64,000 nt of DNA from Candidatus Azambacteria bacterium (lineage in GTDB: Bacteria > Patescibacteriota > Minisyncoccia > UBA10092), in assembly GCA_016213445.1 (NCBI GenBank), contig JACRAJ010000001.1, positions 206,203 through 270,202 of the forward strand. The letters run 5' to 3'. The notes beneath the pieces are model-generated. The model was not told the DNA's origin and searched no databases. It saw nothing but the letters and a program-made list of their open reading frames with translations. How positions within the stretch are numbered: the first letter of the stretch is position 1; the number at the start of each line of letters is the position of its first letter. Made by a program: the position numbers and the translations under genes. Positions 2,128 through 56,855 of this stretch are shown here, one piece after another.

Positions 2128-4167
2128 ATGTTTAATTCTCTTTTTATTTCTTTGTTCTTTCCGTTCATCGCTTTGGTTTTCGCGGCGTATTTCATTTATT
2201 GGATAATGAAAAAAGATCAAGGGACGGATGAAATGAGACGCGTTAGCGATGCCATTCGCGAAGGCGCCGGCGCCTTCATTAACCGGCAGTATCGCGCTAT
2301 CGGGTTGATAAGCGTTATCGCGGCTTTGAGCCTTTGGGCCGCTTATTATCTATTCAACAAACCAATGCTTGGCTGGCAAATGGCGTTGGCATTTATTTTT
2401 GGCGCCGCATCTTCGGCGGTTTCGGGAATCATCGGCATGGCTATCGCGGTTCGCGCCAATTCGCGATCGGCCGCGGCCGCCAAGAGAAGCTTTAATGAAG
2501 CTTTAACTGTGGCTTTGCGCGGCGGAGCGGTTTCAGGACTGACAATCGTGGCTTTAAGCTTGATCGGCATCGCCGGTCTTTTCGGCATTTACAGGCTTTT
2601 CGGTTATGAGGCGATAAAAATTCCCTCTTTAATCGTCGGCTACGGATTTGGCGCTTCGCTGGTGGCGCTTTTCGCCCAGCTTGGCGGCGGAATTTACACG
2701 AAAGCGGCGGACGTCGGCGCCGACTTGGTCGGTAAAATCGAAGCCGGTATTCCGGAAGACGATCCGAGAAATCCGGCGGTGATTGCCGATTTGGTCGGCG
2801 ATAATGTCGGCGATTGCGCCGGCCGCGGCGCCGATCTTTTCCAGTCGACGGCGGCGGAAAACGTGGGCGCGATGATTTTAGGCGTGGCGCTTTTTCCGTA
2901 TTTCGGGATTTCCGGAATTATGTTTCCGCTGGTATTAAGAGCATTTGGGCTTTTGGCCGCCATTATCGGCGTTTTGTTTGCCAGAGCCAAAGAAAATGAC
3001 AATCCGATGAAAGCTTTAAATAAAGGTTATTTTATCACTTCCGGATTGGCGGCTTTGGCGTTTTATTTCATCACCCAAAAAATGCTCGGAAATATGTGGT
3101 TTTTCTGGGCCGGCTTGGTAGGAATTTTAACCAGCCTTATTTTCGTTTATATCACCCAATATTACACCGAAGCGAGATTTCGGCCGGTGAGAGAAATAGC
3201 CGAAGCGAGCCAGACCGGCCACGCCACAAATATTATCACCGGATATGCCGTCGGCCTCGAATCAACCGGATTCACGGTTATCGCCATTTCTTTCGCGCTT
3301 TTATCTTCATATAAATTCGGGTCGCTTTCGGGGATTCCTGGCGGCGGACTCTATGGCACGGCGGTTGCCACAATGGGAATGCTTGCCACCGCGGCGTATA
3401 TTTTGGCGATGGACACATTCGGCCCCATTGTTGACAATGGCGCCGGCATTGCCGAAATGGCGGGCGAATCCGGCCACATGCGAGACGTGATGGATAAACT
3501 GGATTCAGCCGGCAACACCACCAAAGCGCTCACCAAAGGCTATGCCATCGGTTCGGCCGCTTTGGCGACTTTTCTTCTTTTTTTGGCTTATTTGGAAGAA
3601 ACCCATCTCCAGGCGGTTGACTTGGCGAAAGTAGAAGTTTTTATAGGGGCGCTTTTAGGCGCGGCTTTGGTTTTTATTTTTTCATCTTTGGCGATTCGCG
3701 CCGTCGGGAAAGCGGCTTACGCCATAATTAACGAAGTGAGGAGGCAGTTTAAAGAAAATCCGGGCATCATGGCCGGTTCCGAAAAACCCGACTACTCAAA
3801 AGCGGTTGGCATTACCACCGGCGCCGCTTTGAAACAAATGATTTTGCCGGGAATTTTGGCCGTTGCCGTTCCGATTGCCGTTGGCCTTACGTTAAGGGCG
3901 GAAGCCGTAGCCGGATTGATTATGGTCGGCACCATTGCCGGCATTTTAATGGCGACATTTATGAACAATGCCGGCGGCGCTTGGGACAACGCCAAAAAAT
4001 GGATTGAAGCCGGCAATTTAGGCGGCAAAAAATCCCCAGCCCATCAGGCGGCCGTGACCGGCGACACCGTTGGCGATCCGTTCAAAGACACCGCCGGCCC
4101 CTCGCTTCATGTTTTAATCAAATTACTTTCCACCTTAACCCTCGCCCTCGCCGCCTTGTTTGTTTAA
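2128..4167 (+). CDS. hppA: Membrane-bound H+-translocating pyrophosphatase, K+-independent type
   Basis: GGGIYTKAADVGADLVGK and DNVGDCAGRGADLF motifs, many TM segments; GNTTKA (Lys variant) is the published K+-independence signature. Confidence 0.95.
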   Translation: MFNSLFISLFFPFIALVFAAYFIYWIMKKDQGTDEMRRVSDAIREGAGAFINRQYRAIGLISVIAALSLWAAYYLFNKPMLGWQMALAFIFGAASSAVSGIIGMAIAVRANSRSAAAAKRSFNEALTVALRGGAVSGLTIVALSLIGIAGLFGIYRLFGYEAIKIPSLIVGYGFGASLVALFAQLGGGIYTKAADVGADLVGKIEAGIPEDDPRNPAVIADLVGDNVGDCAGRGADLFQSTAAENVGAMILGVALFPYFGISGIMFPLVLRAFGLLAAIIGVLFARAKENDNPMKALNKGYFITSGLAALAFYFITQKMLGNMWFFWAGLVGILTSLIFVYITQYYTEARFRPVREIAEASQTGHATNIITGYAVGLESTGFTVIAISFALLSSYKFGSLSGIPGGGLYGTAVATMGMLATAAYILAMDTFGPIVDNGAGIAEMAGESGHMRDVMDKLDSAGNTTKALTKGYAIGSAALATFLLFLAYLEETHLQAVDLAKVEVFIGALLGAALVFIFSSLAIRAVGKAAYAIINEVRRQFKENPGIMAGSEKPDYSKAVGITTGAALKQMILPGILAVAVPIAVGLTLRAEAVAGLIMVGTIAGILMATFMNNAGGAWDNAKKWIEAGNLGGKKSPAHQAAVTGDTVGDPFKDTAGPSLHVLIKLLSTLTLALAALFV

Positions 4168-23491: not shown

Positions 23492-23557
23492 GTGACATGA
23501 GACAAGAAATTATTTTTTATTACATGTCGCATGCCGCGTGTTATATGTCGCAAATTT
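23492..23557 (+). repeat. Left arm of a long inverted repeat bracketing rpsG
   Basis: GTGACATGAGACAAGAAATTATTTTTTATTACATGTCGCATG...ATGTCGCAAATTT; begins 6 nt after rpsL stop, ends at the rpsG ATG; complementary to 24024-24110. Confidence 0.85.
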
Positions 23558-24025
23558 ATGAGAAGAAAAACAAAAATAAAAAAAGTTGAAAATATTGATC
23601 CGAAGTACGGCAGTCCCTTGGTGGGCAAATTTGTCAATTACATCATGCGCCAAGGGAAAAAATCCACGGCCCAAAGGGTGGTTTACGGCGCTTTTGATAT
23701 TATAAAAGAAAAAACCAAGGGCGATCCGATGGAATTGTTCGAAAAGGCGATTAAAAACATCACGCCGGCTTTGGAAGTGAAATCCCGCCGTGTCGGTGGC
23801 GCCAATTATCAGGTGCCCCAGCCGGTGCGTCCGGACAGGAAAATCCAGCTGGCTTTCAGGTGGGTTATTAACGCCGCCAAAGCGAAAAAAGGCAAGTCGA
23901 TGGCCGAAAAGTTGGCCGAAGAATTTATGCTGGCGGCAAACAACGAAGGCGCGGCTATCAAGAAAAAACTGGATACCCACAGAATGGCGGAAGCGAACAG
24001 AGCGTTCGCGCATTTTAGCTGGTAA
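23558..24025 (+). CDS. rpsG: 30S ribosomal protein S7
   Basis: [46 protein letters not shown]...GGANYQVP; start moved to ATG 23558 by comparison with the usual S7 N-terminus. Confidence 0.95.
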
Positions 24026-24110
24026 ATTTGCGACATGTAATATGCAACATGCAACATGCAACATGTGACATATAATAAAAAATAATTTTTTGTCTCTTGT
24101 CTCTTGTCAC
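24024..24110 (+). repeat. Right arm of the inverted repeat bracketing rpsG
   Basis: AAATTTGCGACAT...(CATGCAA)x3...AATAAAAAATAATT...TGTCTCTTGTCTCTTGTCAC; starts inside the rpsG stop codon, ends 6 nt before fusA ATG. Confidence 0.85.
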
Positions 24111-49843: not shown

Positions 49844-49917
49844 TGCGGGGTAGAGCAGTCTGGTAGCTCGCAAGGCTCATAACCTTGAGGTCGTTGGTTC
49901 AAATCCAACCCCCGCAA
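49844..49917 (+). tRNA. Initiator tRNA-fMet (anticodon CAT)
   Basis: TGCGGGGTAGAGCAGTCTGGTAGCTCGCAAGGCTCATAACCTTGAGGTCGTTGGTTCAAATCCAACCCCCGCAA is close to the E. coli tRNA-fMet as I recall it; A11-U24 pair present; position 1-72 is U-A rather than C-A. Confidence 0.85.
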
Positions 49918-49922
49918 CAAAG

Positions 49923-51199: not shown

Positions 51200-55215
<4,016 letters not shown>

Positions 55216-55262
55216 GGGCTTATAAATAAAAGCCCTCGGGCTTTTTAAAATTACCCAAATTT

Positions 55263-55451
55263 ATGTTGGAGCGGATAAAAAATTATTTTAAGGAAGTTAA
55301 GGTTGAAATGGCCAAAGTTAAGTGGCCGACGAAAAATCAGGCCGTTAATTATACTTTGACGGTTGTCGGCGCGTCTCTCGCGGCCGCGGCTTTTTTAGGC
55401 GCTTTGGACTATATTTTCAGCTTGGGTTTGAATTTCTTTTTGTTTAAATAA
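55263..55451 (+). CDS. secE: Preprotein translocase subunit SecE
   Basis: 62 aa, FKEVKVEMAKVKWPTKNQ then a single TM; conserved position before nusG. Confidence 0.9.
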   Translation: MLERIKNYFKEVKVEMAKVKWPTKNQAVNYTLTVVGASLAAAAFLGALDYIFSLGLNFFLFK

Positions 55452-55455
55452 GATG

Positions 55456-55533
55456 ATGTGGGCGGCCCCGCCATGAAGGCAGGGCGCTCATAAATTTAGC
55501 TAAAAATATTAATTTTTAGAAATTTATGGCGAA
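55456..55533 (+). repeat. 78-nt leader repeat, copy 1 (upstream of and into nusG)
   Basis: ATGTGGGCGGCCCCGCCATGAAGGCAGGGCGCTCATAAATTTAGCTAAAAATATTAATTTTTAGAAATTTATGGCGAA, 100% identical to 56078-56155. Confidence 0.95.
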
Positions 55534-56068
55534 ACAGCAATCACAAGGCAAAAATTGGTACGTGCTTCACACTTATTCCGGTTATGAAGACGCGGTGGCG
55601 CGCAATTTGAAGCAAAGAGTTGAATCCCTGGACATGCAGGACAAGATTTTTAACGTTTTGGTTCCAAAGGAAAAGAAAATAAAAATCAAGAACGGCAAAC
55701 GGCGGGTTATTGAAGAAAAAATTTATCCGGGTTACGTTTTGGTTGAAATGATTGTTTCCGATGATTCGTGGTATGTGGTGCGCAACACGCCTCGCGTTAC
55801 GGGATTTATCGGTTCCGGCACCATGCCGATTCCGGTGTCTTTGGAAGAAATGAAAGACTTGCAGAGGCGGATGGGCGGCACCGAATCGAAGTATAAGATT
55901 GAGTTTTCGGTTGGCGATCCGGTGAAAATTATCGACGGTCCATTCAAAGATTTTGACGGCAAAGTGAATGAAGTTGATGAAGAGCGCGGCAAGGTCAAGG
56001 TTATGATATCGATGTTTGGCCGGGAAACGGCGGTAGAACTTGACTCATTGCAGATTAAGAAGTTATAA
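55526..56068 (+). CDS. nusG: Transcription termination/antitermination factor NusG
   Basis: NWYVLHTYSGYEDAV (NGN), KOW motif GDPVKIIDGPFKDFDGKV. Confidence 0.96.
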   Translation: MAKQQSQGKNWYVLHTYSGYEDAVARNLKQRVESLDMQDKIFNVLVPKEKKIKIKNGKRRVIEEKIYPGYVLVEMIVSDDSWYVVRNTPRVTGFIGSGTMPIPVSLEEMKDLQRRMGGTESKYKIEFSVGDPVKIIDGPFKDFDGKVNEVDEERGKVKVMISMFGRETAVELDSLQIKKL

Positions 56069-56077
56069 GGATATGTA

Positions 56078-56155
56078 ATGTGGGCGGCCCCGCCATGAAG
56101 GCAGGGCGCTCATAAATTTAGCTAAAAATATTAATTTTTAGAAATTTATGGCGAA
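56078..56155 (+). repeat. 78-nt leader repeat, copy 2 (upstream of and into rplK)
   Basis: Identical to 55456-55533, including the ATG and the next 5 nt (ATGGCGAA); offset 622 nt. Confidence 0.95.
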
Positions 56156-56573
56156 GAAAATAAAAACAATCGTAAAAATTCAAATTCCAGCCGGGGCGGC
56201 GACAGCCCAGCCGCCGGTTGGCACCGCTTTGGGTCCGCATGGGCTGAATCTTGGCGAATTCGTCAGCAAATTCAATTCGGCCACAAGAGAAATGGCCGGC
56301 GATATTATTCCGGTTGAAGTGACGGTTTATGAAGACCGGACTTACGATATGAGATTCAAAACTTCTCCGGCGGCTTCGCTTTTGAAAAAAGCGGCCGGCA
56401 TTGAAAAGGGAAGTGGCAATCCGAAGAAACAGAAAGTCGGAAAAGTCAGCATGGCCCAGATTCGGGAAATCGCCGAAAAGAAAATGGTTGATTTAAATGC
56501 CAACGATATTTCAGCGGCGGAAAAAATCATCATGGGCGCCGCCCGAAGCATGGGTATCGAGGTTGTTAAATAA
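56148..56573 (+). CDS. rplK: 50S ribosomal protein L11
   Basis: [29 protein letters not shown], 141 aa. Confidence 0.97.
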
Positions 56574-56603
56574 AAAAATCTGTTCTTTGGAGGAAGAAAA
56601 GAA

Positions 56604-56771
56604 ATGAGAGACAGAAAACCCAAATTGGGGCGAGTATTTTTTAGGGTTGTCAGGTGGAATAAATTGGCGTGTCACTTGCGATTGCAGTCGGCGCGCTACC
56701 GCCATTATAAGCAAACACTGTATAATCCTTGCCATCGGTTGTATCGGTTTAATTTCCGACAGACTTTGTAA
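56604..56771 (+). CDS. Candidate 55-codon ORF for a very basic Cys/His-containing peptide, in the slot where rplA normally lies
   Basis: GGAGGA (56589-56594), 9 nt, ATG; MRDRKPKLGRVFFRVVRWNKLACHLRLQSARYRHYKQTLYNPCHRLYRFNFRQTL; followed by a strong terminator. May instead be a non-coding RNA. Confidence 0.3.
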   Translation: MRDRKPKLGRVFFRVVRWNKLACHLRLQSARYRHYKQTLYNPCHRLYRFNFRQTL

Positions 56772-56788
56772 GTTTTTAATGAAGCGAT

Positions 56789-56811
56789 CCCCGCCGAGGC
56801 GGGGTTTTTTT
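56789..56811 (+). terminator. Rho-independent terminator ending the secE-nusG-rplK unit
   Basis: CCCCGC-CGAG-GCGGGG followed by TTTTTTT. Confidence 0.85.
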
Positions 56812-56855
56812 ATTTGAGATATTATGGTACTTTTAAACTAAGTTTAAATACAAAC

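Follow-up and report, generated by a model that had tools for sequence, protein, structure and literature searches.

Why should nusG and rplK, two adjacent genes with different functions, begin with exactly the same leader? The question is raised by a window of 64,000 nucleotides (nt) from a Candidatus Azambacteria bacterium (contig JACRAJ010000001.1 of assembly GCA_016213445.1), in which a repeat search detects a direct repeat of 78 nt, at 55456-55533 and 56078-56155, with 100% identity and a spacing of 622 nt. The identity extends through ATGGCGAA, the first 8 nt of both genes, and thus includes the two start codons (ATG 55526 of nusG and ATG 56148 of rplK). A search with each half of the repeat, allowing up to 3 mismatches, found no third copy in the window, and none of 100 shuffles gave a match. 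The perfect identity, the shared coding nucleotides and a weaker similarity reaching back to the preceding stop codons (TAAGATGAT versus TAAGGATATGTAAT) had been read from the letters by a first-pass annotation, which attributed them to recent gene conversion or to a common cis-regulatory RNA; all three are confirmed here. Both window copies belong to a family of modular, dispersed leaders that span the space from stop codon to start codon in Azambacteria and some other Parcubacteria. A combined explanation, in which such a folded leader family has been copied recently between the two genes and acts at the RNA level, appears to us rather probable, if far from secure.

The family was delineated with a pattern applied to metagenome contigs (GTGGGC, a gap of 14-44 nt, and GCTCATAWWTTTWRCTA) that covers the 5' two-thirds of the element and excludes the start codon. 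The scan yields 57 loci, cited here by L numbers, with one match apiece; three of these look like chance (L122, L132, L148) and 54 are real, providing 38 unique copies with a readable start codon. In all 54, the element is followed by a start codon in register or by ATGGCA at the contig end. The Pfam-confirmed downstream genes encode L11, EF-Ts, L35, L27, S9, GreA, GroEL and GyrA, and further ones encode NusG, recognized by sequence identity, and a proline-rich membrane protein without a domain assignment. Searches with R1, a covariance model built from 37 unique copies, add diverged copies before the genes for S18, MiaA and a PolX-like protein and before four genes without an assigned identity, as well as leaders of rplK or nusG in Sungbacteria and further Parcubacteria (L024, L026, L036, L041). 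Altogether at least 13 different genes have the element, 57-105 nt long across the family, in front of them. On each of seven contigs there are two copies, and a scan of viral contigs returned 0 matches.

The placement of the element is equally uniform. Most of the unique copies (29 of 38) start 0-11 nt past a co-directional stop codon, and the element junctions include rpsB-tsf, infC-rpmI, groES-groEL, nusG-rplK and secE-nusG; the remainder of the 38 are preceded by an AT-rich, weakly promoter-like sequence. Neither among these copies nor among the diverged ones found with R1 does any lie antisense or between convergent genes. The element is always sense-oriented and fills the space from a stop codon, or from promoter-like AT-rich sequence, to the start codon of housekeeping genes. 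The earlier notion of a common cis-regulatory RNA for nusG and rplK survives in spirit and proves too narrow, the element being dispersed before so many genes. Besides the window pair, there is one identical pair across genes, from a single metagenome sample: the rplK copy of L106 equals the groEL copy of L107 over 86 nt. In the tsf leader of L129 (1190-1277, minus strand), two 3' ends stand in tandem (...AUAUGGCAAA followed by AAUUUAUGGCAAAG), which looks like the footprint of one element variant pasted onto another; at this junction (...AGAAAAAUAUGGCAAA followed by AAUUUAUGGCAAAGAUU), the AUG that comes first is not in the reading frame of tsf.

Such a distribution bears directly on the explanation that the rplK position brings to mind, a gene-specific autoregulatory leader, that is, an L11 operator or a relic of the L1 operator, copied to nusG. 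In Escherichia coli, the L1 operator sits before rplK. Ribosomal protein leaders in general (the L1 operator and those of L10, L20, L13, L21 and S6:S18) resemble the element in that a structured 5' region extends over the start of translation, and the element occurs at the same junctions, before rplK, rpmI, rpmA, rpsI, rpsR and tsf. Unlike these leaders, it is a single sequence shared by many genes, including those for GroEL, GyrA, GreA and MiaA, is dispensable in sister lineages, and has no match in Rfam: at the gathering score only tRNAs are found, none at the element, and at E<=10 over 55150-56850 nothing relevant appears, the weak OmrA-B match there being the rplK terminator. The first-pass annotation had observed that rplA is missing at this locus, and the same is true of all related loci examined; at all Azambacteria loci, rplK is followed by gatB, a dCMP deaminase gene or thyX. 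The large Parcubacteria group OD1-L1, which we do not equate with Azambacteria, is reported to be devoid of ribosomal protein L1 (PMC5220378). An L1-binding leader of an rplKA operon therefore fails on the absence of rplA next to rplK, and a curated gene-specific ribosomal protein leader fails on the diversity of downstream genes and the absent Rfam match. Because the element is not gene-specific, occurring before at least 12 genes other than the one it would regulate, and because rplK of close relatives does without it, the L1/L11-operon framing of that annotation falls, and a gene-specific leader is already contradicted and practically excluded.

The age of the pair can be gauged from relatives, for which we used contigs encoding a NusG 85-94% identical to that of the window, with relatives at <=78% NusG identity, among the matches listed, as outgroups. 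The secE-nusG gap in relatives is normally 3-5 nt. The nusG-rplK gap measures 17 nt in L081 and 6 nt in L152 and is a 4-nt overlap in L155, all without the element, and in L084, L085, L086, L089, L091, L092 and L153 it holds a homologous element of 53-106 nt; copy 2 of the window is positionally homologous to the rplK-leader copies of L084, L085, L089, L091, L092 and L153. Five loci (L084, L085, L089, L092, L153) have the element before rplK only, and L135, in which rplK lies 17 nt after nusG, has it before nusG only. The first-pass annotation had proposed to look for the same leaders in relatives: several indeed carry the element in one of the gaps, but L081, L152 and L155 have both gaps empty. 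Even an identical NusG protein does not predict its presence, since L153 has the rplK element and L155 does not. Short spacers in L081 (CGAGGGCAAAGAAATTTATGG) and L091 (TGCGGGCATTTTTAGAAAAATATGG) have the look of stubs left by internal deletion of the element. Elements are gained, lost and degraded to stubs, and their hairpin tips vary in a modular manner.

The window is the sole case so far with both gaps occupied. Its copies show 0 differences in 78 nt, against at most 84% identity to the closest other member found. Together with the relatives that have one gap filled or neither, these numbers support the annotation's suggestion of recent gene conversion or copying, the nusG/rplK pair apparently being much younger than the split from the compared relatives. 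That the window copies belong to a dispersed family and are recent copies of one another we consider very likely. Misassembly, the trivial alternative, is an unlikely source of the repeat to judge from the sequences, because independent assemblies of other species have the element at the nusG gap (L135) or the rplK gap (many). The window NusG is 100% identical to a Candidatus Azambacteria NusG at NCBI, and a database look-up found no record of the exact window L11 protein. Two short Logan contigs from run SRR12113407 (L150, L151) encode proteins identical to the window NusA and class II tRNA synthetase, and this run probably contains the window organism.

What, then, has been copied? RNAfold predicts two hairpins per copy, a GC-rich P1 followed by an AU-rich P2. 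The first-pass annotation had recognized parts of both, a GC hairpin GCCCCGCC/ATGAA/GGCAGGGC with one C.A mismatch and an AT hairpin, which RNAfold renders as CUAAAAA(U)/AUUA/(A)UUUUUAG; both are present, and two further pairings had been overlooked. One is the outer stem of P1, which in copy 1 joins GUGGGC (55458-63) to GCUCAU (55486-91), with a bulged G55464, around the inner stem GCCCCGCC/GGCAGGGC (55465-72/55478-85, loop AUGAA). The other is a longer helix, CAUAAAUUU/AAAUUUAUG, in which the AT hairpin is nested and which pairs the start codon: CGC-U-CAUAAAUUU (55485-97) pairs with AAAUUUAUG-GCG (55520-31), with an AG bulge at 55498-99 and an apical stem CUAAAAAU/AUUUUUAG within 55500-19, and the nusG start codon (55526-28) sits within this P2 helix. 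The repeat contains no Shine-Dalgarno sequence, as had been stated; this is nothing special because most genes of the window also have none, their leaders being mostly AU-rich with the typical context AAATT-ATG.

Across the family, P1 has a conserved GGGC/GCUC base and a variable tip, and the AU-rich P2/P2b follows directly. RNAalifold lengthens P2 into the coding region by pairing YGC-U-CAU with AUG-GCR, and the basal helix takes the form (Y)GC-U-CAU-N6 with N6-AUG-GC(R), with the start codon and an alanine codon inside. The repeat reaches into the gene because this pairing takes in the first codons. The outer stem of P1 and the bottom of P2 are mutually exclusive, since both use the same GCUCAU. 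For the window copy, the conformers are predicted at -26.7 and -26.9 kcal/mol, and the energy gap across 37 family members averages 1.4 +/- 1.6 kcal/mol. The 5' GUGGGC, in some copies AUGGC or AUGGAC, resembles the start region AUGGC; this likeness is limited to 5-8 nt and is accounted for equally well by pairing to one and the same GCUCAU. The anti-start strand (55486-55493 and 56108-56115) reads GCUCAUAA, the same as nt 31-38 of the window tRNA-Met (49844-49918), its anticodon loop with anticodon CAU (GGCTCATAACC); the match may be a coincidence, given that pairing with AUG requires CAU.

Variation within the family respects these helices. The two common P2 variants, CAUAAAUUU/AAAUUUAUG and CAUAUUUUU/AAAAAUAUG, show zero mismatches in the 38 unique copies, 14 of which have AA:UU and 24 UU:AA. 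Rarer variants still pair (CAUAAUUG/CAAUUAUG, CAUGUUUG/CAAACAUG and CAAUU/AAUUG); in the CAAUU/AAUUG variant, the AUG of the element has turned into UUG and the real start has moved to an overlapping GGC-AUG. Differing P2 variants occur side by side on single contigs (L114, L146, L104), and a bulged U and G.U pairs are conserved. In the extended start-codon helix, treated as an alternative structure, 97.5% of alignment cells are paired and 10 of 18 pairs have changed on both sides; the initiation codon would thus lie paired in a conserved helix, as it does in start-codon-occluding operators and RNA thermometers.

The overall pairing counts point the same way, with qualifications that, along with several other observations, weigh against the combined explanation. 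In the MAFFT alignment A1, 96.3% of cells are paired, versus 40-61% with the partners slid, with GTGGGC and GCTCATA fixed by the search pattern, which makes their invariance in A1 circular. The counts in A2 (54 distinct sequences), 96.0% paired versus 41-58% with the partners displaced by one to three columns, and changes on both sides in 13 of 25 pairs, are biased towards structure because the model served to fit this alignment. In 500 shuffles the observed values are never attained, a statistic that overstates independence because the copies are related by descent. The sense and antisense strands fold about equally (-28.6 versus -28.0 kcal/mol, p=0.17), so that RNA structure is inseparable from a constraint on single-stranded DNA or a palindrome. 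The start region is predicted to open at an ordinary cost, 3.6 kcal/mol for nusG and 2.6 for rplK (window median 3.3; ranks 24 and 35 of 53), and the cost is ordinary at 15 C as well as at 37 C; the prediction thus gives no strong occlusion of the start codon, and exceptional occlusion was looked for and not found. Because presence and absence differ among near-identical relatives, the element is dispensable at any given gene. Finally, its function is wholly inferred. A real regulatory role at the RNA level is possible, but we lean towards doubting it.

The same observations feed the main rival explanation, a selfish palindromic repeat without any RNA function. This would be a repetitive extragenic palindromic (REP) sequence, a miniature inverted-repeat transposable element (MITE) or a transposase-less derivative of the IS200/IS605 type, with hairpins and core serving as recognition features for a DNA-level mobilizing enzyme or for recombination; it would survive only in harmless stop-to-start gaps, and the nusG/rplK pair would be its latest insertion or conversion. 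The erratic presence of the element among very close relatives, the gaps that hold deletion stubs, the identical copies at different genes (the window pair and L106/L107), the modular hairpin tips, the equal folding of both strands and the ordinary predicted accessibility of the start codon all fit this explanation. So do unrelated palindromic fillers in the same two gaps of other Parcubacteria, such as L058: for 46 long spacers at both junctions, the median z is -4.3, and 80% have z below -2. A REP-like palindrome with a Y1 transposase gene also exists in the clade (L091). However, the roughly 17 gene contexts are all sense, in exact register with the start codon, and none lies between convergent genes; for orientation alone, the chance is (1/2)^17, about 8e-6. 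Genes of the translation and transcription machinery are over-represented downstream of the element, the core is common to Azambacteria and Sungbacteria, and P2 has been kept by compensatory change even after its AUG ceased to be the start codon. Nor were terminal inverted repeats, a target-site duplication or a linked transposase found, the palindrome next to the L091 transposase being unrelated in sequence. On balance we regard a purely selfish repeat as unlikely, though as the strongest competitor of a folded leader with an RNA-level role.

Two of the loci just named deserve a description of their own. L058 belongs to a different Parcubacterium; there, a palindromic element of about 145 nt, composed of ACGAAT/ATTCGT units and unrelated to the leader element, is itself duplicated in the secE-nusG and nusG-rplK gaps (2836-3015 and 3531-3685), and similar ACGAAT repeats occur in L034 and L039. 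L091 (3535-4257) has four copies of the perfect palindrome CTTGGTGACGCCGTCACCAAG, placed on the flanks of and within a Y1 transposase gene of IS200-like type (PF01797, E=1.5e-6) beside rplK, a system that resembles REPs and their REP-associated tyrosine transposases (RAYTs). A link between this transposase and the leader element was rejected, the flanking CTTGGTGACGCCGTCACCAAG being unrelated to the element.

Comparison with known dispersed repeats sharpens the distinction. Like the REPs and bacterial interspersed mosaic elements of enterobacteria and pseudomonads, the element is a short, imperfect, hairpin-forming palindrome dispersed in intergenic regions of one genome, within operons, with concerted evolution per genome, and many REPs, like most element copies, lie no more than 15 nt from a stop codon on their upstream side. 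According to the passage in PMC12306157 that cites its reference 17, REPs that follow the upstream stop codon by less than 16 nt lower translation of the upstream gene. REPs occur in either orientation and mostly in 3' or convergent positions; unlike them, all element copies are sense, abut the start codon, and contain and pair it in exact register. The copy number is apparently low, two adjacent hairpins share a strand, and neither a GTAG motif nor a linked RAYT was found with the element on the contigs examined. It does have a GTGG head, but this is imposed by the search pattern, and the sole Y1_Tnp gene seen (L091) has a different palindrome.

The Correia elements of Neisseria, the pneumococcal BOX elements and ERIC are modular, dispersed and co-transcribed, form stable RNA hairpins and are polymorphic for presence among strains; they are not known to have a fixed relation to start codons. 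The element shares with such structured MITEs its modular, dispersed and hairpin-forming nature and its variable presence, but it has no detectable terminal inverted repeats or target-site duplication, its 5' GTGGGC... and 3' ...AAATTTATGGCA not being mutual inverted repeats. In L153, the 5' AAAUAUGGAC resembles the 3' AAAUAUGGCA; we did not accept this as a target-site duplication because AAAUAUGGAC is only two transitions from the common AUGUGGGC and upstream flanks are gene-specific.

A further alternative places the function of the element in transcription. In E. coli, a terminator and a promoter lie between nusG and rplK, and by analogy P1 and a following U-rich run would end the upstream gene, with the AT-rich part acting as an internal promoter. 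Copies of the CAUAUUUUU type lend some color to this idea, having AUAUUUUUA, and in relatives AUAUUUUU, after P1. In the window copies, P1 is followed merely by AUAAAUUU, and a promoter and terminator scan called no promoter-like or terminator-like site inside either copy; an intrinsic terminator was rejected on these grounds. An internal sigma-70 promoter was likewise rejected, for the scan found no -35 and -10 hexamers at 16-18 nt spacing inside the element and the short forms in L085 and L114, with 8-10 nt from the conserved core to the ATG, leave too little room for one. Moreover, conservation tracks base-pairing rather than hexamers. We judge a combined terminator and promoter to be highly improbable. 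Two other candidates were discarded: a conserved upstream open reading frame in P1, because frames and lengths vary, and a likeness to boxA, the NusB/S10 site (UGCUC plus a U/A-rich stretch), in which only UGCUC is conserved and is base-paired.

The mutually exclusive helices invite yet another explanation, in which the element is the shared leader of a regulon, an operator at which a single trans-acting factor, be it a protein, a small RNA, temperature or ribosome availability, would co-regulate the translation of mRNAs for ribosomal proteins, elongation factor, NusG, GreA, GroEL and GyrA by altering how far the P1 outer stem prevails over the start-codon helix. One conserved core does stand before five ribosomal protein genes and those for EF-Ts, NusG, GreA, GroEL, GyrA and MiaA, pair counts back both helices, whose predicted energies are close, and the bulged U and the G.U pairs are conserved. 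Yet orthologous genes in sister lineages are without the element, only two of the many ribosomal protein and translation genes in the window carry it, no candidate factor has been identified, and an energy balance of this kind is expected for any three-base-pair branch migration. A dedicated regulon is accordingly very unlikely in our view.

Two kinds of known start-site arrangement help to frame the proposal that we prefer, a folded leader acting on the mRNA. The fourU and ROSE thermometers occlude start sites, and the chloroplast atpH 5' untranslated region is opened by PPR10. In these switches, as in the element, an AU-rich helix holds the initiation region and an upstream segment competes for the sequestering strand; unlike in the switches, the predicted occlusion by the element is weak, and the likeness is one of predicted fold. 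In the leader of cauliflower mosaic virus (CaMV) 35S RNA, shunting involves an upstream open reading frame that ends a few nt before a stable hairpin, with translation restarting right after it. The element too has a stop codon shortly before the hairpin and a start directly after the fold; since CaMV shunting is a mechanism of eukaryotic scanning, ribosome transfer across the element would be an analogy only.

Under the preferred explanation, the nusG and rplK copies would have arisen from each other very recently, by non-allelic gene conversion or by a copy-and-paste process with its 3' junction in the shared ATGGCRAA. The element would be transcribed within the mRNA and act post-transcriptionally. 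P1, starting within reach of the ribosome that terminates on the upstream gene, could insulate the downstream cistron, a possibility suggested by its place near the stop codon, where REPs are reported to cut upstream translation; it might also serve as a stabilizing 5' or 3' hairpin that protects RNA ends. P1 and P2 together would fold the 60-100-nt spacer compactly, and their contest for GCUCAU would keep open, or conditionally gate, access to the AAAWWUAUGGC start region, which has no Shine-Dalgarno sequence. The predicted openness of this region, close to that of an average gene, would suit a finely balanced gate and equally a design in which insertion does no harm.

In a bolder version, the element would serve Shine-Dalgarno-poor Parcubacteria as a portable start cassette, a mobile RNA module equipped with an AUG-GCR start of its own. 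There would then be a three-way contest among a 5' mimic of the start (GUGGGC/AUGGC), the anti-start strand with GCUCAUAA and the real start, and mRNAs for ribosomal proteins, EF-Ts, NusG, GreA, GroEL and GyrA would come under a single global control. As signals, one may consider termination-dependent re-initiation over the folded spacer, temperature or a dedicated binding factor. We consider this version distinctly unlikely; if true, the cassette would be a bacterial counterpart of a TOP-like (terminal oligopyrimidine-like) translational regulon, spread by gene conversion.

Both copies are intercistronic parts of one secE-nusG-rplK transcription unit, as follows from the promoter and the terminator-like hairpin that frame it (Table 1). 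The TTGACA hexamer is kept at the equivalent place in relatives, and 6 nt separate the secE stop codon from the GUGGGC of copy 1.

Table 1. Features of the secE-nusG-rplK unit and of the two leader copies (window coordinates).
Feature	Position	Strand	Evidence or remark
Sigma-70-type promoter of the unit, TTGACA-17-TATAAT	55187..55215	+	12/12 consensus, promoter scan
secE, 62 amino acids (aa)	55263..55451	+	Open reading frame; orthologues of relatives carry PF00584
Repeat copy 1, whole leader element and ATGGCGAA of nusG	55456..55533	+	Identical to 56078-56155; R1 78.7 bits, E=1.8e-16
Copy 1 P1	55458..55491	+	RNAfold, family pair counts
Copy 1 P2/P2b	55485..55531	+	RNAfold minimum free energy, RNAalifold
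nusG, 180 aa	55526..56068	+	Open reading frame; PF02357, PF00467
Repeat copy 2, whole leader element and ATGGCGAA of rplK	56078..56155	+	R1 79.4 bits
Copy 2 P1	56080..56113	+	
Copy 2 P2/P2b	56107..56153	+	
Copy 2 start codon	56148..56150	+	
rplK (L11), 141 aa, rplA not next	56148..56573	+	Open reading frame; orthologues carry PF03946, PF00298
Intrinsic-terminator-like hairpin closing the unit	56789..56812	+	CCCCGCCGAGGCGGGG then TTTTTTT, terminator scan

Some neighboring features merit a record. Between the promoter and the secE start codon (55216-55262) lies a hairpin with a U run, AAAGCCC-TCG-GGCUUUUU, and an equivalent GCCYGCGGGCUUUUU is kept at the secE-leader place in L081, L084, L085 and L086; the segment has the appearance of a conserved attenuator or terminator-like leader for this unit. 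The 240 nt from rplK to gatB (56574-56813), a space of about 90-120 nt in relatives, contain no convincing gene and a strong terminator at the end, which accounts for the sole Rfam signal there, the sub-threshold OmrA-B-like match (26 bits versus a gathering score of 40). In L089 and L090 (760-2137), an RVT_1 reverse transcriptase gene lies with a bAvd gene directly upstream of secE, a combination characteristic of diversity-generating retroelements; secE is called there as 104 aa, not 64 aa. In L092 (1-2245), gyrB contains an intein (PF14890), and the length of gyrA in L144 and L147, 1207 aa versus 817 aa in L097, suggests an intein in that gene as well. Elsewhere in the window (23540-24100), an AT-rich region between divergent genes contains repeated GCGACATG/GCAACATG units, which may be an operator or promoter repeat.

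Dispersed palindromic repeats and structured leaders are both already known kinds of element. A family of repeats that brings the start codon and pairs with it before about a dozen core CPR (Candidate Phyla Radiation) genes appears to be undescribed, given its absence from Rfam and full-text literature searches on CPR structured leaders, MITEs and Shine-Dalgarno usage that found nothing relevant. It is a candidate new RNA family, for which the alignments A1 and A2 and the model R1 have been made. The genomes of CPR bacteria are tiny, their known regulators few and their ribosomes unusual, and some Parcubacteria lineages are without L1. For those who annotate such metagenome-assembled genomes, the case carries the caution that identical leaders are probably biology, not misassembly. 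It also offers a natural example of cis-elements that spread between genes through copying, and the element provides a testable handle on translation initiation and operon punctuation in organisms in which Shine-Dalgarno sequences are rare.

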